Source of the DNA: Nitrosopumilus sp.
GTDB taxonomy: Archaea; Thermoproteota; Nitrososphaeria; Nitrososphaerales; Nitrosopumilaceae
DNA: 64,000 nt
Direction: 5' to 3'
NCBI RefSeq assembly: GCF_025698945.1
Contig: NZ_JAILWM010000002.1
Location: forward strand, 166,680-230,679
Positions within the stretch are counted from its first letter, which is position 1, and every line of letters starts with the position of its first letter. Of this stretch, positions 14,474 to 25,018 are shown one piece after another. The position numbers and the translations under genes are program-made. Under the pieces are notes generated by a model. That model had not been told where the DNA came from. It ran no database searches and worked only from the letters and a program-made list of their open reading frames with translations.

Positions 14474-15526
14474 TTACCTAGGAAAATATCTGCTCTTTTT
14501 CTGTTTTGGTTTTACTTTTTCTACTTTGCTTTTTGTAATAGGTTGTCTGATCTGGTTACAGTTCAAACATAGGACCTTTAGCTCTTCTCTAGCGAGTTCA
14601 GGTTCTGAAATGTATTTTCCCCATGAGGAAGCTGCACCCCCTCGTTTAACATCATCAAAGCCATTTTCTTCAAAAATATGACTTATTCCTAAAGCTCTCT
14701 CATCTTTAAATCCACAACTAGAGCAACTTTTGCCGCCTAAAATTTCAAACAATTTTTCTTTTAGAGATTCATAAAATTTGTCAGAAGCATTTGCAAAAAA
14801 ACTCTCTCGCTTTTTTAAGAATTTTTCATTTTTTGGTTTTTTGGAGATAATTCTGTCCCTACTGGACTGTTTTTCATTTCTTGAATATCTAGAGTCTCTA
14901 TCGTTTCTAGAATTTCTGTCATTTCTAGAATATCTATCACTAGCTGAATCTTGTGGTTTGTTTTGTCTGAAACAGTCATTACAGTAAACAGGTCTGTCTG
15001 TTCTTGGAACAAATGGAACTTGACATTCAGTACCACAATCAGCACAAGTTACTGTTGTAGATTCTTCTCGTCGGTCATTTCTTGAATATCTAGAGTCTCT
15101 ATCGTTTCTAGAATTTCTGTCATTTCTAGAATTTCTGTCATTTCTAGAATTTCTGTCATTTCTAGAATTTCTGTCATTTCTAGAATATCTGTCATTTCTA
15201 GAATATCTATCATTTCTAGAATATCTATCATTTCTAGAATATCTATCATTTCTAGAATATCTATCACTAGCTGAATCTTGTGGTTTGTTTTGTCTGAAAC
15301 AGTCATTACAGTAAACAGGTCTGTCTGTTCTTGGAACAAATGGAACTTGACATTCAGTACCACAATCAGCACAAGTTACTGTTGTAGATTCTTCTCGTCG
15401 GTCATTTCTTGAATATCTAGAGTCTCTATCGTTTCTAGAATTTCTGTATGAACGACTAGTGTTATTATCTCCAGAGGATCTCTGAGATTTTTTCTTATCA
15501 GAATACTTTGATTTGTAAAGCTCCAT
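14474..15526 (-). CDS. CxxC-x17-CxxC zinc-ribbon protein with R/S/D-rich repeats and C-terminal HNH-like domain
   Basis: Two CADCG..CNDC domains; (RY/RN)SRND repeats; CSSCG..LGISHI..LCLNCN. Confidence 0.8.
   Translation of the reverse strand: MELYKSKYSDKKKSQRSSGDNNTSRSYRNSRNDRDSRYSRNDRREESTTVTCADCGTECQVPFVPRTDRPVYCNDCFRQNKPQDSASDRYSRNDRYSRNDRYSRNDRYSRNDRYSRNDRNSRNDRNSRNDRNSRNDRNSRNDRDSRYSRNDRREESTTVTCADCGTECQVPFVPRTDRPVYCNDCFRQNKPQDSASDRYSRNDRNSRNDRDSRYSRNEKQSSRDRIISKKPKNEKFLKKRESFFANASDKFYESLKEKLFEILGGKSCSSCGFKDERALGISHIFEENGFDDVKRGGAASSWGKYISEPELAREELKVLCLNCNQIRQPITKSKVEKVKPKQKKSRYFPR
14919..15447. repeat. 202-bp exact duplication (14919-15120 = 15246-15447) overlapping nine 18-bp tandem units (15102-15263)
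   Basis: Direct comparison; unit tcatttctagaat(t/a)tct(g/a). Confidence 0.9.
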
Positions 15527-15598
15527 TTCTAAGAAATTTTAGATTGATTGGTTATAGATACTTTGAGATAAAATTTATGCCTAGAAAAAAAATTTCTA

Positions 15599-15937
15599 CT
15601 AGACTAGAGATTTGTCCATTTCTGTAGCCAGTACTTCTTGAACTTTAAGAAAATAGAGTTTGGTAGAATATGGCATCTGATCTAAATTATTATCAACTAC
15701 AATCATAAAGTATCTCACTGCACGTTTTGAGATATCTAGATTGAATTTCATTGTAAGAATAGGATCTTGATGAACTTTAATTTTATCTTGTAACCAAGGT
15801 GGTGCCATCTCAATTGTTTCATTAATAATTTTTTTGTACCAAAAAGAGAGATTTTGTGGATGGAGTCCCTGCTTTAGATCATTAACATCATTATCAATTA
15901 TTTTCATCATATTATTGATGATTGCCATTAGCCTCAA
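15599..15937 (-). CDS. Conserved hypothetical protein
   Basis: 112-aa ORF in minus-strand gene run. Confidence 0.65.
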   Translation of the reverse strand: MRLMAIINNMMKIIDNDVNDLKQGLHPQNLSFWYKKIINETIEMAPPWLQDKIKVHQDPILTMKFNLDISKRAVRYFMIVVDNNLDQMPYSTKLYFLKVQEVLATEMDKSLV

Positions 15938-15980
15938 TCAAGAAATTGTGTTTTATTCCATTTACTCAAAGTTCTGCAAT

Positions 15981-16466
15981 CTATTTGTCAATTGATAACA
16001 GGTTTCCTTCTGTATCAATTTCTGAATTTTTTATTCTAGTAGTAGAAATTCTCGTACCATCTTTTGCCAAAAACATAGGAACAGAGATAATTTTAACAGG
16101 AGGTAGGTTTTTTTCTTCCCGTAATTTGTTTAGTATCTGACCCTGATTGCTTGTTTCATCACTAGTAACTAAGGCTTCAACTCCTGTTTCCAATACTGCA
16201 GGACCAAAATCGTTTTCCAATTTACTAATTTGATAAGAAGAATTTGGAAATTCTTTTGAAATTAATTTATTTAAATTTTCTAGTCTTGTTTGATAGTTAT
16301 TAGTTAGAACTTTACCTTTTTTTAATGCCAATTCATCACTTGTCAATCCAATTATTACTTTTTTAGAAATTTTAAATGAATTTGAAAGTAATGTAATATG
16401 TCCACGATGAATGATATCAAATGTACCTCCAGTAGCAATAAGAGAGAATTCCTGCATGAGAAACAA
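15981..16466 (-). CDS. coaD: Phosphopantetheine adenylyltransferase (archaeal type)
   Basis: GGTFDIIHRGH, GLTSD, ALVTSDET, ISTTRIK. Confidence 0.9.
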   Translation of the reverse strand: MFLMQEFSLIATGGTFDIIHRGHITLLSNSFKISKKVIIGLTSDELALKKGKVLTNNYQTRLENLNKLISKEFPNSSYQISKLENDFGPAVLETGVEALVTSDETSNQGQILNKLREEKNLPPVKIISVPMFLAKDGTRISTTRIKNSEIDTEGNLLSIDK

Positions 16467-16490
16467 TAAACTTCTTTTAAAATAAACTTA

Positions 16491-17558
16491 CTATTTTACA
16501 ATAACTAATACAAATGGACCTTGTTCTGCAATTGGAATATTATTTCTATCCCAAACAAAGGTTTCAATAAAAAACAATCCTGGTTTTTCAGGAATCCAGT
16601 CAATGGTTTGTGTTTGAAGTCCTGTTCCGATAAATCGACCATCATATTTTCCAATAAATTCTACATATGGAGATTCTCCGGATTCTTTAATTTGGACATA
16701 GTATGTGTATGGAGTTTCATTCGAGTTTTGTTTTAATGAAAACTGCACCCATGTTTGACTTTCAATATTTACTGTAGAGCCTAATGTAATTTCTGAAAGT
16801 TTGTTACCGGAAGTATCTTTTACGGATACATCTGAAATTTTTACTAATTTGGTCAGAGATTGTGGTGGTGGAATTTTCACATCAACAAAATCTGAATAAA
16901 AAACATCTGATTCAGCAAATAACAAAAATCCTACAGCTCTTGCATCAATGTTTTCATCAAGCTCAAAAGAAATCTCAGCATTTGATGCTACATTTCCTAG
17001 TTCAATAGTTGAGATCTGCAAATATCTTGGTGGCTCAAAACTATCATAAAAAACAGCATAGACATTTGTGTTGGAATTAGGTGCCCCACCATTCTCTAAA
17101 ACCCCTGATAGGCGTAATGATGCATCATAGAAAACATCAGTGGGATAAACCAAGAGTCCCTTTTGTTTTCCTTCTGAAGAATCAAATCCCAACAAAGTGA
17201 CAGATGCTTGTGTTATCTCTGAATTAGGAGATGTTGAACGAATTGAATATGGAGATTTTCCATTTGGTGGAATTGATTCTAGAATAGTTCCCCCAATTGA
17301 GATGTCAATTGGAGCAGGATCTATATCATCATAGAAAGTTACTTGGATTCTAACATTATCTACTGCAGATAGTGAATCATGGTTTTCTACCATCCCAATA
17401 ACTACAGTGTATCCTTCAGCATCCTGATAAACAAAAGGTGTTTCATTACTTAGTGCTACTGATAATGTTGGTGCATTATCATAATATTCTTGAGAAAAAC
17501 CCTGAGTGAATGGAATTAATAGTAAAATCAAAAATATATTAAAAATAATTTTTCGCAT
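16491..17558 (-). CDS. Secreted protein with repeated Ig-like (FxLYD-like) domains
   Basis: Start re-called to ATG 17558 (MRKIIF.. signal peptide); VIGMVEN..QVTFYDD and SGVLEN..YAVFYDS modules. Confidence 0.7.
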   Translation of the reverse strand: MRKIIFNIFLILLLIPFTQGFSQEYYDNAPTLSVALSNETPFVYQDAEGYTVVIGMVENHDSLSAVDNVRIQVTFYDDIDPAPIDISIGGTILESIPPNGKSPYSIRSTSPNSEITQASVTLLGFDSSEGKQKGLLVYPTDVFYDASLRLSGVLENGGAPNSNTNVYAVFYDSFEPPRYLQISTIELGNVASNAEISFELDENIDARAVGFLLFAESDVFYSDFVDVKIPPPQSLTKLVKISDVSVKDTSGNKLSEITLGSTVNIESQTWVQFSLKQNSNETPYTYYVQIKESGESPYVEFIGKYDGRFIGTGLQTQTIDWIPEKPGLFFIETFVWDRNNIPIAEQGPFVLVIVK

Positions 17559-17688
17559 CTGAATTTCTTTCAGATTAGAGATTAATTTCGTATAACATAT
17601 CATATAGTGAACAAGAAAGGTAACAACGTTTAACCCAGTTGACACTAGACATTAGAGATAATAAAAAGAGATTAAAAATAGATTAGTT

Positions 17689-17790
17689 CTATTTTCTCTT
17701 TGCTGTAATTGCTAACCAGTATATCAAACCGGGAGCTAAACCAACAATGAGTGGAATCCATACAGGCCATCCATCTACTGCGCTTGTCAT
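17689..17790 (-). CDS. 33-aa membrane microprotein (not in ORF track)
   Basis: MTSAVDGWPVWIPLIVGLAPGLIYWLAITAKRK; TATA tttaaata about 25 nt upstream; T-rich terminator downstream. Confidence 0.7.
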   Translation of the reverse strand: MTSAVDGWPVWIPLIVGLAPGLIYWLAITAKRK

Positions 17791-17866
17791 AAAAGAAAAC
17801 CGAAACTTATCCTATTTAAATCCATCCAGCAGTCTGAAATTCATCACTGATCGTTATAGGTAAAAG

Positions 17867-17940
17867 TGGACCGGACGGAATTTGAATCCGTGACCCCCCG
17901 CGTGCAAGGCGGGTATACTACCAGGCTATACTACCGGCCC
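17867..17940 (-). tRNA. tRNA-Ala(TGC)
   Basis: GGGCCGG/CCGGTCC-A acceptor with G3:U70; CCCGC-CTTGCAC-GCGGG. Confidence 0.97.
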
Positions 17941-18019
17941 ACGAGAGGATGTTTATTGTGTGGATTTTAATTGTTGTCTTCTTGGCAAGAATTTTATTTG
18001 AAAGGAAGGAATTTTTTTT

Positions 18020-18574
18020 ATGGTACTATTAGAATCACAAGTCAAACTAAAGACAGGTGATATAGCTCCTGACTTTGAATTACTAGGAATTGACGACAAA
18101 AAGCACTCCCTAAATGATTATGGAAACTACAAAGGAATTTTGATTATTTTCATGTGTAATCACTGTCCCTATGTCAAGGCAAAAGTTGATGCATTAAATG
18201 AGCTGTATGAAAAATTTGGAAAGGAAATCGCAATTATTGGAATAAACAGTAATGATTCTACAGATTATCCTGAAGATAGTTTTGAAGCAATGAAACAGAC
18301 TGCAAAGGAGAAAGGATTTGGTTTTGATTATTTGGTTGATGAAACACAGGAGATTGCCAAGAAATATGGTGCCATGTGTACTCCAGACCCATTCTTATTC
18401 AATAGTGAAAGAAAGTTAGTTTTTCATGGAAGAATTGACAATGCAATGAAACCAGATGATATAGCCACAGAAAAGACAATGATCAACAATATACAGAAAC
18501 TATTGACAGGTGAAAAAATTGAAAAAGACTTTGACCCATCAATTGGTTGTTCTATCAAGTGGAAAGAAAATTAA
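18020..18574 (+). CDS. AhpC/TSA (peroxiredoxin-like) thioredoxin-family protein
   Basis: FMCNHCPYV, GINSND, AMCTPDPF, SIGCSIKW. Confidence 0.9.
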   Translation: MVLLESQVKLKTGDIAPDFELLGIDDKKHSLNDYGNYKGILIIFMCNHCPYVKAKVDALNELYEKFGKEIAIIGINSNDSTDYPEDSFEAMKQTAKEKGFGFDYLVDETQEIAKKYGAMCTPDPFLFNSERKLVFHGRIDNAMKPDDIATEKTMINNIQKLLTGEKIEKDFDPSIGCSIKWKEN

Positions 18575-18607
18575 ACTTAAATGAGTCCTGCCAAGAGATT
18601 TGTTCGT

Positions 18608-18682
18608 GGGCTCGTAGCTCAGCTTGGCTGGAGCGTTCGACTGATAATCGAAAGGTCATGTGTTCGAATCACATCGGGCCCA
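18608..18682 (+). tRNA. tRNA-Ile(GAT)
   Basis: GGGCTCG/CGGGCCC-A; TTCGA-CTGATAA-TCGAA. Confidence 0.97.
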
Positions 18683-18689
18683 TTTTTCA

Positions 18690-19583
18690 TTATTTAGAAT
18701 TAGCATATACTGTCTGAGACCACTGTAAAATATCATCAATTTTTTCAGAAATTAAATCGGATTCAATTTTTGTTTTCTTAGATACTTTGCCACAAAGAGC
18801 TAATTTCATTTTTTTGCCTGATTTTTCTTTTATTGAAGATATTGAATCAACAAAAAAGTTCAGGCCTTCGCTAGTTTGTGAGAATACAACTACAATCAAA
18901 ATTCCAGGTTTTTGTTTCCATATTTTTCCTACAAGTTTTTGAAAATCAAGATCAAATAAGACATCTATTGCAGATGACATGTCACCCAAATTGGAAACTC
19001 TCCATCCATTAGAATGATACACAGCAGAAACTGCTTCAGAGAGCAGACTGCTTTGAGAATCAGCTGAAATTAATACCACATTTTTTTGTGGATCTGAAAC
19101 CATAGATTGTTGATTGAAGATTTGAATAGATTTTGAGATCGTGGTCCTAAGAAGATTACGCTCTGCTGTTCCAATCTTTCCATCATCATATAATTTCTGT
19201 ACATAATCAATTGCTGGCAAAATTACTTCAAGAATTAATCGATTTACAGTTCCACCTGAATTCAAACAATTTCGAATTAGAGAAAAGACTTGGTCTTCTG
19301 TTCCTTTAACTAAATAATCAGCATACTGTGGTTGAACTTTAAAATAATCATCTGGAAAATTAAATGATTCTTGACCTGGTTCTAAAAACCATAATGTGAG
19401 ATTTCCAATATTTTTTTGTCGCAGTAAGCCTTCAGCTGCAAAAACTTTGAGGTATTTAGACATGGTAATTCGATTAACTCCTATCTTTTCAGAGATTTCA
19501 ACACCGGACATTCCAGAAACTGAGTTTTCTAATAATGAGATTAGTTTTTGTCTAATGTCCTCAGTAGAATATCCTCGTGCCAT
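18690..19583 (-). CDS. HTH transcriptional regulator fused to a degenerate cobalamin-binding module
   Basis: Start re-called to ATG 19583 (MARGYS); wHTH GMSGVEISEKIGVNRITMSKYL; four-helix cap then Rossmann domain ending GWRVSNLG. Confidence 0.75.
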   Translation of the reverse strand: MARGYSTEDIRQKLISLLENSVSGMSGVEISEKIGVNRITMSKYLKVFAAEGLLRQKNIGNLTLWFLEPGQESFNFPDDYFKVQPQYADYLVKGTEDQVFSLIRNCLNSGGTVNRLILEVILPAIDYVQKLYDDGKIGTAERNLLRTTISKSIQIFNQQSMVSDPQKNVVLISADSQSSLLSEAVSAVYHSNGWRVSNLGDMSSAIDVLFDLDFQKLVGKIWKQKPGILIVVVFSQTSEGLNFFVDSISSIKEKSGKKMKLALCGKVSKKTKIESDLISEKIDDILQWSQTVYANSK

Positions 19584-19727
19584 AGTGTATTTTGATAGAG
19601 GTATTGTATAAAGACTAATTTTAGAATTTACCATTAATGAGAAATTTAGTCTTCCTTTTAGGAAATAACCAGATTCAAAATGGCAGGGTAGTGGAAAAAG
19701 ATTAGTTGATTCAAAATAATCTAAGAA

Positions 19728-19841
19728 TCACGGAAGCAAATCATAACCTGCATAATATCTAATCAAAAGAGTGATACCGATACCAAGAGAAATACTCACA
19801 CCTAATGCAATCATCACTAATTTATCCAATAATATCTTCAT
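19728..19841 (-). CDS. Candidate 37-aa membrane microprotein (not in ORF track)
   Basis: MKILLDKLVMIALGVSISLGIGITLLIRYYAGYDLLP, single hydrophobic helix. Confidence 0.55.
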   Translation of the reverse strand: MKILLDKLVMIALGVSISLGIGITLLIRYYAGYDLLP

Positions 19842-20020
19842 TTGTTCATACTATAATTATTTTTTGGACATTCAGAGATTTAGATGAAAAGACGCCCACC
19901 GAAGCCTGTGGGATTGAAATCAAGGGGGATAATAAATGGAAAACCATGATTCAAAATTCTGTCAAAAGTTAATAGCAACTCAATTCTATTGTTTATTTTA
20001 TGGTAATTCCAATCTGAATT

Positions 20021-20419
20021 ATGGGTAAAGAACCAAGATCCATAATTGTAAAAACAATGGTGACAACAAAAGTTAGTAAAGATACTTTCGAATTTTTTTC
20101 AAATCTAAAAAATTGGGAATTTGGAGGTGCATTAAAAAACATTCAAAAAGATAAAGATGATTGGTGGGTATGCAATTCGCCATTTGGTGAAGTAAAGATA
20201 AGATTAAGATCAAATGAGAAATTTGGAATTTTAGATCACGATTTTATTGGTGGGGGTGGAGAATGGACTGTATCATGCAGAGTTACTCCAAATGAGAGTG
20301 GTTCTACAGTAACATGGTTGTTTATACGACCTGAACCTATGACACAAAAACAGTTTGAAGAACAGTTGAAGAATTTTGATAATGAGATTATGGGTTGGAA
20401 AAAAGCCTTAGAATCCTAA
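20021..20419 (+). CDS. SRPBCC/START-like (polyketide cyclase) family protein
   Basis: FEFFSNLKNW, SPFGEVKIR, FGILDH, RVTPNESGSTVTW. Confidence 0.8.
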   Translation: MGKEPRSIIVKTMVTTKVSKDTFEFFSNLKNWEFGGALKNIQKDKDDWWVCNSPFGEVKIRLRSNEKFGILDHDFIGGGGEWTVSCRVTPNESGSTVTWLFIRPEPMTQKQFEEQLKNFDNEIMGWKKALES

Positions 20420-20529
20420 CACATGTCCCGACTGAAAACAGTCAAAATCATGTCCCATCAAGGAAACAGTTCCCAAAAAATAAAACATTATATACTTCGG
20501 TACCTTAATGTACGGTAAGGAAAAGTAAA

Positions 20530-20916
20530 TTGCCAAAAGCCGGATTCAAATCAATCACTGTTTCAGAAACTGTTTATGATAAATTCCACGAAGTTTATCA
20601 AAAAAGTAAAGACGACCTACAAATGAAAGGAGTCAACAGTTTTTCAGGTTATGTCACTTACATGTTAGAGGAGATGATGCAAAAGGACAAGACCTTTGCA
20701 AGATATGCTCCAAAGATTGAAAAGATTTCAGTTGATGATGATAGAGTAATACTAAAGGATAATATCAAAAATAGAATTGCAGAAGTTGCAGTACAGAAAG
20801 GAGAATTGTTCTGTCAGCTCTGTGACGAAAAAGATTGTGTACATATTGGCTTTGTTTTCTCTCTGCCAGATGTTTACGAAATCCTCAATGCCAGAGGAAT
20901 AAAACATCCAAAATAA
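20530..20916 (+). CDS. Putative DNA-binding protein (RHH-like N-terminus, Cys/His-rich C-terminus)
   Basis: FKSITVSETVYDKF; LFCQLCDEKDCVH; TTG start. Confidence 0.65.
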   Translation: MPKAGFKSITVSETVYDKFHEVYQKSKDDLQMKGVNSFSGYVTYMLEEMMQKDKTFARYAPKIEKISVDDDRVILKDNIKNRIAEVAVQKGELFCQLCDEKDCVHIGFVFSLPDVYEILNARGIKHPK

Positions 20917-20923
20917 AGAACAG

Positions 20924-21045
20924 TGGAGGAGGTGGGATTTGAACCCACGAACTCCTGAGAGACAGGATCACCCATTATTTGATCTTAAGTCCTGCATGTC
21001 CAAAAGCACAAAGTGCTTACTTTGGCCAGGCTTGATTACTCCTCC
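20924..21045 (-). tRNA. tRNA-Leu(TAA) with two introns (23/24: 21019-20998; 37/38: 20983-20969)
   Basis: GGAGGAG/CTCCTCC-A; CAGGA/TCCTG stem; long variable arm; D-arm intron forms a perfect bulge-helix-bulge (CCAA/TTGG). Confidence 0.9.
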
Positions 21046-21136
21046 AAAAGGGTAGAAATTTGTGTGAAATTTAACAGTTTAGAGTAAATTGCAGAAGAAT
21101 GAAGAATTATAAGGATTTTCTACAGGGAAAATTTGT

Positions 21137-21210
21137 GCTTCGATAGCTCAGCCTGGTAGAGCGTTACATTGGTAATGTAAAGGTCGCGGGTTCAGATCCC
21201 GTTCGAAGCT
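21137..21210 (+). tRNA. tRNA-Thr(GGT)
   Basis: GCTTCGA/TCGAAGC-T; TTACA-TTGGTAA-TGTAA. Confidence 0.95.
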
Positions 21211-21347
21211 TATTATTTTCTATAACATTCTAAAATTGACAGATTTACGAAATTTGTATTTAAGCTATTCTGAGGCAAGTAAAAAGTTAGTTCAAGATCA
21301 AATAAATTTGTGTAAAGTGCAGTTAATGAATTCTGCAATACTAACTA

Positions 21348-22211
21348 TTGAAACAAGTATACTCTCAAGTATCATCTGTCACTCCAAAACCATTTGTTAA
21401 ATGGGCAGGAGGAAAACGCCAACTAATTCCAATTCTAAATGAGAGTTTACCCAAATCTTTTGGGACTTATTATGAGCCATTTCTTGGAGGGGGAGCTTTA
21501 CTATTTCATATGCTAACTGAAAGAAATGGTCAAAAATGCAGCATCTCTGATTTGAACTCTGATCTAGTATTGGCATATACTACAATTAGAGATAGAATTG
21601 ACGAGCTTATTTCCTCTCTAAAAAATCATGAAAGAAATTATCAGAAAGATTCTAAATCATACTATTACTCCATTAGAGAATCAAATCCAAGAAGTGAAAT
21701 TGAAAAGACATCAAGATTGTTATTTCTCAATAGAACCTGCTTTAATGGATTATATCGAGTAAACAGCAAAGGAAAATTCAATGTACCTCTTGGAAGATAC
21801 ACCAACCCAAATATCGTAAATGAAGAAAATTTACGTTCAGTTAGTTTCATTCTCCAATCAAGCAAGGTTGCAATCAAATGTCGTGATTTTGAGGCAGTAC
21901 TGCAAGATGCCAAAAAAGGAGATCTAGTATACTTTGATCCACCATACCAACCAGTAAGCGATACTGCAAATTTTACCAGTTATACAAACAAGGATTTCAC
22001 AGATAGCGATCTTAGTAGACTAGCAGAACTTTGCTCAAAACTTGATTCAAAAGGATGTAAAGTCCTATTATCAAATTCAGATTCAAAACAAGTTGCCGAT
22101 ATGTTTTCAGGAAAAACTTGGAAAGTTAGAAAGATTCATGCAAATCGTTCAATCAATTCAAATTCTAAAAAGAGAACAGGTCACTTTGAATTATTGATTA
22201 AAAATTATTAG
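21348..22211 (+). CDS. dam: Dam/D12-class N6-adenine DNA methyltransferase
   Basis: KWAGGK, YEPFLGGGA, NGLYRVN, VYFDPPY. Confidence 0.9.
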   Translation: MKQVYSQVSSVTPKPFVKWAGGKRQLIPILNESLPKSFGTYYEPFLGGGALLFHMLTERNGQKCSISDLNSDLVLAYTTIRDRIDELISSLKNHERNYQKDSKSYYYSIRESNPRSEIEKTSRLLFLNRTCFNGLYRVNSKGKFNVPLGRYTNPNIVNEENLRSVSFILQSSKVAIKCRDFEAVLQDAKKGDLVYFDPPYQPVSDTANFTSYTNKDFTDSDLSRLAELCSKLDSKGCKVLLSNSDSKQVADMFSGKTWKVRKIHANRSINSNSKKRTGHFELLIKNY

Positions 22212-22273
22212 CCTTAGTTTATTTTCAAAAATTTTCAAATAAAAAATCTATAGAGTGTACTCTAGAGGATTAA

Positions 22274-22300
22274 GAAAATGAAAAGGAAGAGGTTGGGTGT
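22274..22300 (-). terminator. amoA 3' element/terminator, 26/27 identical to the amoB 3' element
   Basis: ACACCCAACCTCTTCCTTTTCATTTTC directly after TAA. Confidence 0.7.
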
Positions 22301-22951
22301 TTAGTCCCACTTTGACCATGCGGCCATCCATCTGTATGTCCAAGTGTTTAGTTTACAACCTAGTGCTGCAAACGTACATGCCAATACTGCACCTGCACCT
22401 GCACCTAAAGCCACTGGGCTGTTATAGAACTTTCCAACTTGAGGTTCTATCGGTGTCATGTATGGTGGCAATGTTGGTCTTGGATATTTGAATGCCGTTT
22501 CAAGTGGGTCTGCTACTGTTATCAGGTTTACCATGTTGAACAATGGTAAAGACATTCCTACTAGTACGCCGCCAAACAGTATCAAGGAGTGCTTGTTCTT
22601 CTTTGTTGCCCAGTAGACTAAATCCAACAGCATTGCTGATGGTAACCAAACTGGTGTTACAATGAAGTCATATGGATATCCGAGTGCAAACCATGCACCT
22701 TTTGCTACCCATGTGTATACTGTCATAATTAGAGCGTAGTACGTTGCTGTACCTGGAACACCTGTAAATGTTAGGTAATATGTTGCACCTACTACAAGCA
22801 TCAACGTTTGCGATATTGAGAATACCGTGTACGAAGTCCAAGCCCAGTCAGTGTAGAAGATGTAATCTCCTGCATTAATTGTTAACAGTGTTGAGTTAAC
22901 TGCAACTACTACTATGAATAAGTAGTGTGTACATCGTCTTAACCAGACCAT
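22301..22951 (-). CDS. amoA: Ammonia monooxygenase subunit A (archaeal)
   Basis: MVWLRRCTHY..NAGDYIFYTDWAW; 216 aa. Confidence 0.99.
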   Translation of the reverse strand: MVWLRRCTHYLFIVVVAVNSTLLTINAGDYIFYTDWAWTSYTVFSISQTLMLVVGATYYLTFTGVPGTATYYALIMTVYTWVAKGAWFALGYPYDFIVTPVWLPSAMLLDLVYWATKKNKHSLILFGGVLVGMSLPLFNMVNLITVADPLETAFKYPRPTLPPYMTPIEPQVGKFYNSPVALGAGAGAVLACTFAALGCKLNTWTYRWMAAWSKWD

Positions 22952-23058
22952 ATGAAGGTGAAGAAACGGTCAGTATATAAAATTTTAGAGTATGATGGAG
23001 ATCGTTGTTCTGAACCTAAAAATGAAAATGAAAAAGAAATGTCTGAAGGGTTTTCCTT

Positions 23059-23421
23059 CTAGTATCCAACATATAGTGATATGAATATTGTACCGGCTGT
23101 GACAGCAGCTACACTACCGCCAACGATACCATTACTATTTTTGTTGGAACCTTCTTCCATGACTTTAACACAGAAGATATAACCTATTGCCTCAATGATT
23201 GTCAAGACGATGAATGCAAAGTGACCACTAGAGGTTGGATATGCCCATGGATAATAGAAATATCCTGCTGCAGTACCACCAAAAGTTGCTAACCATGCTG
23301 CCCAGAATGAAATTGTAATCATACCAGTCATGTTTTCAACGCGCTTTCCAATCATTCGTTCTACATCAGCACTTGATGATCCACCAGCGCCGCCAGAACC
23401 GAATCCTTTAGGAAGAGTCAT
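23059..23421 (-). CDS. amoX: Ammonia monooxygenase-associated subunit X
   Basis: Membrane protein between amoA and amoC; FWAAWLATFGG, YPWAYP. Confidence 0.9.
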   Translation of the reverse strand: MTLPKGFGSGGAGGSSSADVERMIGKRVENMTGMITISFWAAWLATFGGTAAGYFYYPWAYPTSSGHFAFIVLTIIEAIGYIFCVKVMEEGSNKNSNGIVGGSVAAVTAGTIFISLYVGY

Positions 23422-23537
23422 TCTGGAATTATTCTAATAGAGAATCCTTTTAAGTCTTTCTTAAACTGAGGGAGGAAGTACGATCTACGTCTTTTGAAAA
23501 TAATAAAAAGGAAAAAAGTGTGCTTTTGCACTTTTGT

Positions 23538-24113
23538 CTATGGTATTGCTCTGCTGTACAATTTGCCTTCTAAGGCCATCTTGTACATTTCTGCAACATA
23601 TGGGTTCTCTCCAGGAGTTTCTGCACCTAGTTCTACGAGTCTAGCATATACTCTGACTACGTATGCAAGTGCACCCATGAATGCTACTACAACACCCATG
23701 TTAAACATCCAGTGATTTGGTACTGCAAAGATCTCCTCTACAAACCAGAAGTGCCACATCTCATTGACTCCAATTGTAAACATTGTTGCAAGGTAACCTA
23801 GAATGGTCATCTTCAAACCAGTGTTCATTGAATTATTTGGGCCTCTAAGAACTGGAACTTTTCTATCATAGATTGCTGCTGCTCCCCATCCAAGTGGTAA
23901 TGCGATGAAGTGGGAATACAACCACCAGTGAGCTGGTGTGAAAGCACTATCTCTGATAGATGTCTGATGTAGTGATCCATCAACGAAGTTATCAACTTCG
24001 ACTGATGCTGCAGTGGACCCCATAGCAATAACGATGAGCCAGATTTTTTTAAGTCTCTGAATCTCAACTTCTTTTGGGATTAATGCGGGCATCTGTGCCA
24101 TGTCTACAATCAT
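23538..24113 (-). CDS. amoC: Ammonia monooxygenase subunit C (start may be ATG 24101)
   Basis: MAQMPALIPKE, DNFVDGSLHQ, FTPAHWWLYSHF, EMWHFWF. Confidence 0.99.
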   Translation of the reverse strand: MIVDMAQMPALIPKEVEIQRLKKIWLIVIAMGSTAASVEVDNFVDGSLHQTSIRDSAFTPAHWWLYSHFIALPLGWGAAAIYDRKVPVLRGPNNSMNTGLKMTILGYLATMFTIGVNEMWHFWFVEEIFAVPNHWMFNMGVVVAFMGALAYVVRVYARLVELGAETPGENPYVAEMYKMALEGKLYSRAIP

Positions 24114-24259
24114 GTGAGTTCGGCATATAAAGTAAGAGTTTCAAAAATGGTTAGTTAGGTTCAAATTTTTTAGTAATTAGAGTAAAAATCAATGAAATTT
24201 TTTCTTTTCATTGATTTAGATTGAAATAATTTTATTATTATTTTTTCATTTTCATTGTT

Positions 24260-24283
24260 AATCATTGATGATAAACAATGATT
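24260..24283. promoter_or_regulatory. Perfect inverted repeat AATCATTG-N8-CAATGATT in the amoC/amoB divergent region
   Basis: Read directly; about 30 bp upstream of the amoB TATA-like catataa (24314-24320). Confidence 0.5.
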
Positions 24284-24355
24284 GGAGCATCGATCCTCGC
24301 TATCAAGGTAAAACATATAACGATGTGTATTTCTTTCTGAATATTAGGGATAACT

Positions 24356-24925
24356 ATGGTCGAAAAAAAGATTTTCGTATTTGGACTAGCTGTAGTACTT
24401 GCACTAGGAACTTTAGGTTTCAACTGGGTTGAATCCGTACTTCCAACTGCAGATGCACACGGTGTCCAAGCACAACTTCAGAGTCGTTTCATCAGAATTG
24501 AGGATGAAACCTTCAACAGACAATCCCTGCAAACTGGCGAAACCTTGACACTTCAAGGAACTTTAGTCAGTCTTGTAGAAAGAGACCTTAGAGGATGGCT
24601 ATCTATCTTCTCAGAGTCAACCAACGCAGGTAACAGATGGGAAATGTTGGCAAGAGACCCACCAGGAAACGTCTTTGACATTCCAGGTAACTCAGTCATT
24701 GATTACTCACTATCTGCAAAAGCACTTGAACCAGGTGTATACCACGTACACACCCAACTCAATGTAGCAAAAGTTGGTCCAGGACTTGGTCCAGGTCAAA
24801 CAGTAGTAGTTGAAGGAGATCCAATTATCAAACCAATCCCATATACCAACATAGCTTACCAATCAATTATCATTGGCGTTGGATATGTCATTACGTTTGC
24901 AACACGACCCTGGCAAGTAATATAA
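24356..24925 (+). CDS. amoB: Ammonia monooxygenase subunit B
   Basis: Signal peptide then AHGVQAQLQSRF; YHVHTQL; C-terminal anchor. Confidence 0.99.
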   Translation: MVEKKIFVFGLAVVLALGTLGFNWVESVLPTADAHGVQAQLQSRFIRIEDETFNRQSLQTGETLTLQGTLVSLVERDLRGWLSIFSESTNAGNRWEMLARDPPGNVFDIPGNSVIDYSLSAKALEPGVYHVHTQLNVAKVGPGLGPGQTVVVEGDPIIKPIPYTNIAYQSIIIGVGYVITFATRPWQVI

Positions 24926-24952
24926 ACACCCAACCTTTTCCTTTTCATTTTC
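24926..24952 (+). terminator. amoB 3' element/terminator
   Basis: ACACCCAACCTTTTCCTTTTCATTTTC directly after TAA. Confidence 0.7.
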
Positions 24953-25018
24953 AATGAACTTACGTTTTACGTAATTAGATAAACCAAGTTTTATCTTCTA
25001 GAAAATTAATATGAAAAT

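Follow-up and report, generated by a model that had tools for sequence, protein, structure and literature searches.

What does a DNA-binding protein do with a B12-binding fold that lacks the residues by which B12 is held? The question is raised by a gene in a 64,000-nt stretch (hereafter the window) of the genome of Nitrosopumilus sp. (assembly GCF_025698945.1, contig NZ_JAILWM010000002.1, positions 166,680 to 230,679 of the forward strand). The gene is single-copy in this genome, is a near neighbour of the amo locus and encodes a protein of 297 aa (P0001, hereafter the regulator). We favour, at a probability of roughly 0.55, the explanation that this protein is a winged helix-turn-helix (wHTH) transcription factor in which a former B12 module serves as a B12-independent oligomerisation or allosteric scaffold, comparable to that of the bacterial regulator CarA, with a signal that is possibly a different one. 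The coordinates of all features are collected in Table 1.

Architecture, predicted fold and distribution

The initial annotation described the protein as a helix-turn-helix, a four-helix cap and a Rossmann domain, in this order, and this reading is borne out by the Pfam match of the cap, by the predicted topology and by structure comparison. The Pfam profile B12-binding_2 (PF02607) matches residues 86-141 with 27.4 bits, above its gathering threshold of 23, and the winged-HTH profiles HTH_24, HTH_IclR and HTH_11 match residues 7-65 weakly. The profile of the Rossmann B12-binding domain (PF02310) did not match the protein at E-values up to 10, though the fold is present in the model, and no Pfam match to a MerR-type DNA-binding domain was obtained. 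An AlphaFold2 model built from a 36-sequence family alignment (mean predicted local distance difference test score 89.5, predicted template modelling score 0.79) contains a wHTH (residues 7-67), four helices (80-157) and a five-stranded Rossmann domain (167-279).

Foldseek places the model nearest to the B12-binding domains of photoreceptor-type regulators and to corrinoid proteins (E 2e-9 to 1e-7). The VIA-align scores, which cover residues ~78-296 (the sensor half), are highest for the photocobilins (Z 21.3) and for the B12 domain of a MerR-family protein of C. thermophilum (8jbs, Z 18.9), followed by MtmC (17.3), the SCHIC domain of AppA (4heh and 4hh3, 17.0-17.3), MetH (16), AerR (15.8) and CarH (15.7). 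With Z-scores of 15-21 to B12 domains, the fold is B12-binding-like, as the initial annotation had supposed. The wHTH resembles Z-alpha domains (Z 11, root-mean-square deviation 1.5 A). By sequence, the family profile reaches 8jbs (E 2.4e-4); the best single-sequence match in the PDB is 2i2x_B (E 0.03), and a search of the ESM Atlas with residues 78-297 retrieved only the protein's own clusters or B12-binding_2 clusters (scores <=0.81). The photocobilins and the C. thermophilum protein (8J2W, 8J2Y and 8JBS) are thus the top matches both by structure and by profile-to-sequence comparison. Unlike the regulator, they are bacterial, His-on B12 binders with biliverdin or MerR parts.

The label 'CarH-like' holds for the domain logic only. 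Like CarH/LitR (PDB 5C8D and 3WHP; Z 15-16), the regulator joins a DNA-binding domain to a four-helix cap and then to a Rossmann domain. However, the DNA-binding domain is an archaeal wHTH and not of the MerR type, the Wx9EH motif and the ExHxxG histidine of CarH/LitR are both missing, an insertion of ~11 residues with the motif D..FDxDLxK lies between strand beta-2 and the SxT site, and in the genomes searched the family is confined to ammonia-oxidising archaea (AOA). The regulator is therefore at most a functional analogue of CarH; as a whole protein it does not share the descent of CarH.

The family comprises 2628 clusters at 90% identity and, after clustering at 50%, about two dozen full-length representatives. 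Its hallmarks, all of which are present in the window's protein, are a length of ~290-340 aa, the motifs NRxTxxKYL and FPxDY, the cap loop Y..G.IG..E and the motif GW....LG...D..FDxDLxK. We searched 401 genomes of the class, each at least 80% complete, for the regulator family and for amoA (PF12942). Six unpublished genomes (G114, G213, G265, G309, G347 and G393) are counted in each tally, and no individual claim depends on them. A full-length regulator is encoded in 320 of the 328 genomes of the four amoA-bearing families, namely Nitrosopumilaceae, to which the window belongs (regulator in 223 of 231 genomes, amoA in 222), a Nitrosocaldus-like family (both in 10/10), a Nitrososphaeraceae-like family (regulator in 83/83, amoA in 78/83) and Ca. 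Nitrosomirales (both in 4/4). The other families (f4 and f6 to f21, of which at least f4 and f6 to f9 belong to the same order) have no amoA, and no full-length regulator was found in any of them among these genomes. They gave weak matches only (E 1e-6 to 1e-11), and in five such genomes that were inspected the matches consist of the wHTH alone (model positions 3-74), four of the five lying in stand-alone open reading frames (ORFs) of 75-113 aa.

Three further observations concern this distribution. The stand-alone wHTH proteins of 75-113 aa (L053-L056) resemble the wHTH plus linker of the regulator (E 1e-8 to 1e-11), and the fusion may have acquired its DNA-binding half from them. Some Nitrososphaeraceae have a second gene in which only the wHTH and linker are recognizable (positions 7-79, in a 267-aa ORF; L036, G166:C1:672756-672974). 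In one genus of Nitrosopumilaceae (g14), the regulator is unmatched in five of 32 genomes, of which four do have a match to amoA (a weak one in one case); this could reflect real loss in a single genus or an assembly gap near amo.

The cofactor site and its probable loss

The published signature of the B12-binding fold is E/DxHx2G-x41-SxT/V-x22-27-GG, in which the His is the lower axial ligand (PMC8156234). The window's protein has D175-x-Q177-x-x-L180, then 54 residues, S235-x-T237, a further 26 residues and C264-G265. Four of the seven signature residues are therefore kept (Asp, Ser, Thr and the second Gly), and in the beta-1 loop, which reads ADSQSSLL, the His is replaced by Gln and the Gly by Leu; the third residue lost is the first Gly of the GG pair. 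In the cap loop (LYDDGKIGTAERN), the site of Wx9EH reads Y132-x8-E141-R-N, with neither Trp nor His, and Wx9EH is present in no family member aligned. Alignments with His-bearing proteins thus confirm that these two strings stand at the Wx9EH and DxHxxG sites and that both signature histidines are absent, as initially noted.

The alignment of AOA orthologs proposed at that stage gave a result on two levels: no His is conserved family-wide, and a series of Nitrosomirales proteins with the His came to light. Across 24 full-length representatives, down to 24% identity, there is no conserved His, Cys or Met column, and the beta-1 loop and GG site hold bulky, unconserved residues (e.g. F, Y, H, K and L). 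The only His of the window's protein is H190, which is invariant in the genus and not beyond it. Two histidines common in the genus, H108 (103 of 116 orthologs) and H198 (107 of 116), are Asn in the window's protein (window positions ~19260 and ~18990); ~90% of Nitrosopumilus orthologs have His at these positions, and no other version in the genus has so few histidines. H108, H190 and H198 were considered as hidden ligands and ruled out, being conserved at genus level only, with Asn at 108 and 198 in the window's protein.

The canonical end of the series is represented by an ortholog of Ca. Nitrosomirales (P0271, GenBank contig JBMCYV010000005.1), which is 30% identical to the window's protein and has the family architecture and the same divergent 128-aa neighbour. 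It contains GE-T-H-T-I-G (ExHxxG), VSAML (SxM), AGGEA (GG) and GADFY (GAD), and it passes PF02310 (33.7 bits against a cut-off of 32.1), PF02607 (38 bits), HTH_11 and HTH_24. Unlike the window's protein, about half of the Nitrosomirales orthologs retain ExHxxG, SxM and GG and pass PF02310, and these are predicted to be true B12 binders. Among 32 Nitrosomirales-like clusters, 16 have both [DE]xHxxG and GG, two the His only, none GG only and 14 neither, the His site of the latter being N, Q, Y, R, D or A and the GG site EG, AG, NG or HG.

In a gene tree (MAFFT and FastTree; a single tree, whose root lies on three very distant bacterial-type outgroups and is not to be trusted), 13 His-less sequences group in a single clade, and three isolated losses lie inside the His-bearing clade. 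Every loss of the His is paired with a loss of GG, and the two His-only sequences adjoin His-less ones. On this topology, His and GG were lost together, independently, at least four times. Such repeated joint loss looks like the abandonment of a B12 site and not like its remodelling. The four AOA lineages (Nitrosopumilaceae, Nitrososphaeraceae, Nitrosocaldus-like and Nitrosomirales) come out as groups in the tree as well, which fits vertical descent. Nitrosocaldus-like proteins keep GG without the His, and those of Nitrososphaeraceae have neither, some having a His three residues further on, at a non-canonical position. From these motifs we conclude that the ancestor probably bound B12 in the classical way and that the site was abandoned more than once, among other lines in the ancestry of the window's protein.

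Conservation was assessed family-wide on the 24 representatives and, within the genus, as column entropy in Nitrosopumilus orthologs (n=116). Three residues of the recognition helix (NRxTxxKYL), R38, T40 and L45, do not vary in the family, and K43 and Y44 occur in 22 of the 24 representatives. The other most conserved positions are G60 and W65 of the wing, the FPxDY linker, P123, Y132..G135..G138..E141 of the cap loop, G193-W194, G200 and F210-D211-x-D213. In the cap loop, 22 of 24 representatives have G135 and E141, and the genus shows no variation in the DGKIG core. Mean entropy in the genus is 0.48 bits; it is lowest in the linker (0.13), followed by residues 202-216 (0.24), the cap loop (0.25) and the wHTH (0.42), and the sensor module and the wHTH are conserved to about the same extent. 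The highest value of any segment (1.11 bits) is that of the beta-1 loop, at the former DxHxxG site. Given the low entropy outside this loop, the sensor half is still under purifying selection, with the constraint weakest at the former site of the cobalt ligand.

Explanations for a degenerate B12 module

These data are best accommodated by a one-component transcription factor specific to AOA, whose N-terminal wHTH would bind DNA. Its cap and Rossmann module would descend from a genuine base-off/His-on cobalamin-binding domain, the cofactor site of which would have decayed in the Nitrosopumilus lineage (His to Gln, motif Gly to Leu and GG to CG) under continued purifying selection on the rest. 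Since the site has decayed, the protein's activity most likely does not depend on His-ligated B12. As an oligomerisation or allosteric scaffold, the former B12 module would then position the wHTH domains on DNA, possibly in response to a different signal, and the candidate targets are the divergent 128-aa neighbour and the adjacent amo locus. The best functional analogy for this explanation is CarA of Myxococcus xanthus, a paralog of CarH and a regulator with a B12 fold whose activity is independent of B12 owing to the absence of a signature motif (PMC8156234). The analogy has its bounds: unlike the regulator, CarA keeps the lower-ligand motif and a MerR domain, and it is countered by an antirepressor, CarS.

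Several points weigh against this explanation. B12 independence would follow from motifs only. D175, S178, L180, S235, T237, C264 and G265 each have <=0.3 bits of entropy within Nitrosopumilus, and such a conserved degenerate signature could be that of a remodelled pocket still in use. Orthologs with and without the His conserve the cap loop to the same degree, so that this conservation neither points to contact with a cofactor nor discriminates between explanations. Finally, corrinoid proteins that bind the cofactor base-off without a His ligand exist, e.g. CFeSP, so that loss of the His does not in itself exclude corrinoid binding.

The alternative that survives best, which we regard as possible yet doubtful, is accordingly a non-canonical corrinoid sensor. 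Binding without the His (base-on or base-off/His-off) would let the protein report cofactor status, or a light signal from the Co-C bond, to the wHTH. The closeness of the fold to B12 photoreceptor domains (Z 19-21) speaks for such a sensor, as do the four signature residues that are kept and conserved in the genus and the Nitrosomirales orthologs that look like true B12 binders. We know of no cobalamin riboswitch in archaea, and none was found near the regulator, a gap that a protein-based sensor would fill. AOA also make cobalamin (PMC4303638), and this too would favour a corrinoid sensor. Against it stand the repeated joint loss of His and GG, with its appearance of site abandonment, the replacement of the motif Gly, which packs against the cofactor, by a Leu that is invariant in the genus, and the bulky, unconserved residues of the beta-1 loop and GG site family-wide. 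Wx9EH, which is absent from the protein, is required for adenosylcobalamin (AdoCbl) binding and function in CarH, and its absence explains the B12 independence of CarA (PMC8156234). A base-on corrinoid sensor was the reading named first in the initial annotation; the comparative series, with at least four joint losses of His and GG, Gly replaced by Leu and GG by CG, argues against it as the first choice. In the CarH/LitR family, tetramerisation depends on AdoCbl and is undone by light.

A broader version of cobalamin sensing can be built on the distribution of the family. The regulator would be an ancestral, AOA-defining sensor of cobalamin or of cobalamin and light, acquired together with ammonia oxidation and controlling a core regulon that includes amo; it would have remained His-on in Nitrosomirales and become His-less in Nitrosopumilus and most other AOA, where it would sense a corrinoid or a different signal. 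We consider this improbable.

Very unlikely, in our view, is a sensor of the SCHIC type, in which the former B12 domain would bind haem or another tetrapyrrole and sense redox state or oxygen, as in AppA and PpaA. The fold has already been repurposed for haem elsewhere, the SCHIC domains of AppA and PpaA (4HEH and 4HH3) are sensors by repurposing with a similarly degenerate B12-like cap and Rossmann module, and the AppA structures are among the best matches of the model over ~200 residues. However, SCHIC domains bind haem via a His and have no DNA-binding domain, and the regulator family offers no conserved His, Cys or Met as an axial ligand (judged by family columns and not by a residue-level alignment with AppA). 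Judged by topology, the sole His, H190, would be located at the distal end of helix alpha-1 and not near the cleft, and the match to SCHIC domains is no better than that to true B12 domains.

A methyltransferase-type corrinoid carrier or an ArsR-type metal regulator is hardly credible, even though JGI names some orthologs 'methanogenic corrinoid protein MtbC1', NCBI assigns others to the ArsR family and weak similarity to MtaC (E 2.4e-5) and ArsR/SmtB (E 0.003) exists, since the scores fall far below the NCBIfam cut-offs (MtaC, TIGR02370, 23.5 bits against 420; pyl_corrinoid, 16 against 215.3; ArsR/SmtB, NF033788, 17.4 against 55), there is no Co-ligating His, the module is fused to a DNA-binding domain, no methyltransferase partner lies nearby, and MtaC, MtmC and MtbC (2I2X and 3EZX, the latter with Z 17.3) share the cap and Rossmann domains with the regulator but are methyl carriers with DxHxxG and without a DNA-binding domain.

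The amo-proximal locus and its significance

In Nitrosopumilaceae, the gene order is amoB, amoC, amoX, amoA, a Dam-type methylase gene, tRNA-Thr, a 128-aa gene, the regulator (divergent), tRNA-Ile, AhpC and tRNA-Ala, and the regulator lies ~2.7 kb from amoA. This order is based on ten genomes from nine genera of the family, in three of which (L044, L046 and L051) ARAGORN made no tRNA-Ile call. The divergent pair of 128-aa gene and regulator is also kept in Nitrosomirales and in a deep genus of Nitrosopumilaceae. In a Nitrosocaldus-like genome, the regulator is ~6 kb from amoCXA, and Nitrososphaeraceae share none of these neighbours. Genes related to cobalamin, light or redox were not found near the regulator outside Nitrosopumilaceae, where the neighbours are a Na+/H+ exchanger, argininosuccinate synthase, FBPase/TIM and UbiA. 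The Na+/H+ exchanger gene is at most two genes from the regulator in a Nitrosomirales (L037) and a Nitrosocaldus-like (L039) genome, which may be chance or a remnant of an older synteny. The convergence of the regulator on an AhpC-like gene across tRNA-Ile, pointed out initially, is real and belongs to the conserved synteny of Nitrosopumilaceae; no evidence of a redox link comes with it, the two genes being on opposite strands with the tRNA between them. The stop codon of the regulator (18690-18692) is 6 nt past tRNA-Ile.

Table 1. Features of the regulator locus in window coordinates
Feature	Position	Strand	Basis or remark
AhpC/TSA-family peroxiredoxin-like gene	18020..18574	+	Pfam, 79 bits; syntenic in Nitrosopumilaceae; convergent with the regulator
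tRNA-Ile(GAT)	18607..18683	+	Between AhpC and the 3' end of the regulator; position kept in several genera
Regulator coding sequence, 297 aa plus stop	18690..19583	-	Start at 19583 supported by ortholog length and by the place of the TATA element
Rossmann-type B12-binding-like domain, residues 166-297	18693..19088	-	Foldseek, VIA-align, AlphaFold2
Beta-1 loop ADSQSSLL, residues 174-181, site of E/DxHxxG	19041..19064	-	Alignments with His-bearing proteins
Four-helix cap (B12-binding_2), residues 80-157	19113..19346	-	Pfam, AlphaFold2 helices, structure matches
Cap loop LYDDGKIGTAERN, residues 131-143, site of Wx9EH	19155..19193	-	Alignments with His-bearing proteins
Linker with FPxDY, residues 69-79	19347..19379	-	Conservation
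wHTH, residues 5-68	19380..19571	-	AlphaFold2 topology, Z 11 to Z-alpha wHTH, weak Pfam HTH matches, conservation
Promoter block, TAAAATTAG (B recognition element-like)-TC-TTTATA	19584..19623	-	Block at 19623-19607; kept in 24 orthologous intergenic regions
132-aa ORF	20021..20419	+	Inside the 946-bp spacer; no family match
Palindrome CGTAC-N6-GTAC, candidate operator	20500..20514	.	Between TATATAA (20488-20494) and the start codon of the 128-aa gene
128-aa gene	20530..20916	+	Divergent from the regulator; by eye, ribbon-helix-helix-like N-terminus and CxxC..CxH cluster
D12-class (Dam-like) N6-adenine methyltransferase gene	21348..22211	+	Between tRNA-Thr and amoA

The full ORF of the regulator (18690-19634, minus strand) would encode 314 aa, and the ATG at 19583 gives the 297 aa that nearly all of the 120 best homologs have (77-96% identity). 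TTTATA lies at 19607-19612, ~26 nt before the ATG at 19583, and the upstream ATG at 19634 falls beyond it, on its upstream side. The shorter protein is favoured by this placement of the TATA element between the two ATGs and by ortholog length, and the transcript is probably leaderless or nearly so, starting at 19583. Across the four lineages, no shared operator was detected 5' of the regulator, the position of the TATA element alone being common to them. A search of positions 15000-25000 with Rfam returned three tRNAs and nothing else.

The 128-aa protein matches no Pfam family. Its gene was considered as an AOA-specific co-marker and rejected, as paralogs are found in an amoA-less family too. 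The spacer of the divergent pair is usually ~117 bp long (112-119 bp in most Nitrosopumilus) and consists of two conserved halves. In the window (19584-20529), the halves are parted by 946 bp that carry the 132-aa ORF. A close relative (G109) has a spacer of 879 bp, and differing insertions, 0.15-2.2 kb long, occupy this position in further genomes; the spacer thus looks like an insertion hot spot.

The palindrome CGTAC-N6-GTAC occurs once in the window, against zero expected, and nowhere else in the genome, in which the looser GTAC-N6-GTAC is found 10 times. It is kept across genera of Nitrosopumilaceae and stays with the 128-aa gene where insertions split the pair. It is a candidate operator, either for autoregulation of the 128-aa gene or for the neighbouring regulator. 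As a route to the regulon the palindrome yields nothing: it tracks the 128-aa gene and may be the 128-aa protein's own operator. The tetranucleotide GTAC itself is scarce, with 2766 occurrences in 1.75 Mb against ~5300 expected (an estimate from 33% GC), i.e. about half the expected rate, which could reflect restriction-site avoidance. The Dam-like methyltransferase gene is syntenic throughout the ten Nitrosopumilaceae genomes and nine genera compared, which is unusual for an orphan-looking methylase.

Part of this is already known. The combination of a DNA-binding domain with a B12-binding fold is that of CarH/LitR, CarA and the XRE-B12 proteins, and degenerate B12-like sensors are known as SCHIC domains. 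Nor is the bare architecture new, since public databases label orthologs 'B12-binding domain-containing protein'. We found no published description of the regulator in the open literature, subscription journals and most supplements being outside the scope of the search; a study of amo synteny (PMC10030591) gives the conserved neighbours and does not single out the regulator gene. Three things appear to be undescribed: an archaeal wHTH version that is near-universal in amoA-bearing families and found only there, the position of the regulator beside the amo locus, and a series from canonical to degenerate sites inside one orthologous group.

The names 'MtbC1 corrinoid protein' and 'ArsR family', which are misleading, can now be corrected. 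To our knowledge, no transcription factor of AOA has been characterised. Near-universal in amoA-bearing families, with a recognition helix that has hardly changed and, in Nitrosopumilaceae, a place close to amoA, the regulator is an obvious first target for the study of gene control in these archaea. The orthologous series, from complete His-on sites through intermediates to fully degenerate ones, can help to address the role that a B12-binding fold has after the loss of its cofactor. If the improbable reading of an ancestral AOA sensor were true, the regulator would be the first transcription factor to be linked with ammonia oxidation in archaea; its orthologs would form a natural series of the rewiring of a cofactor sensor.

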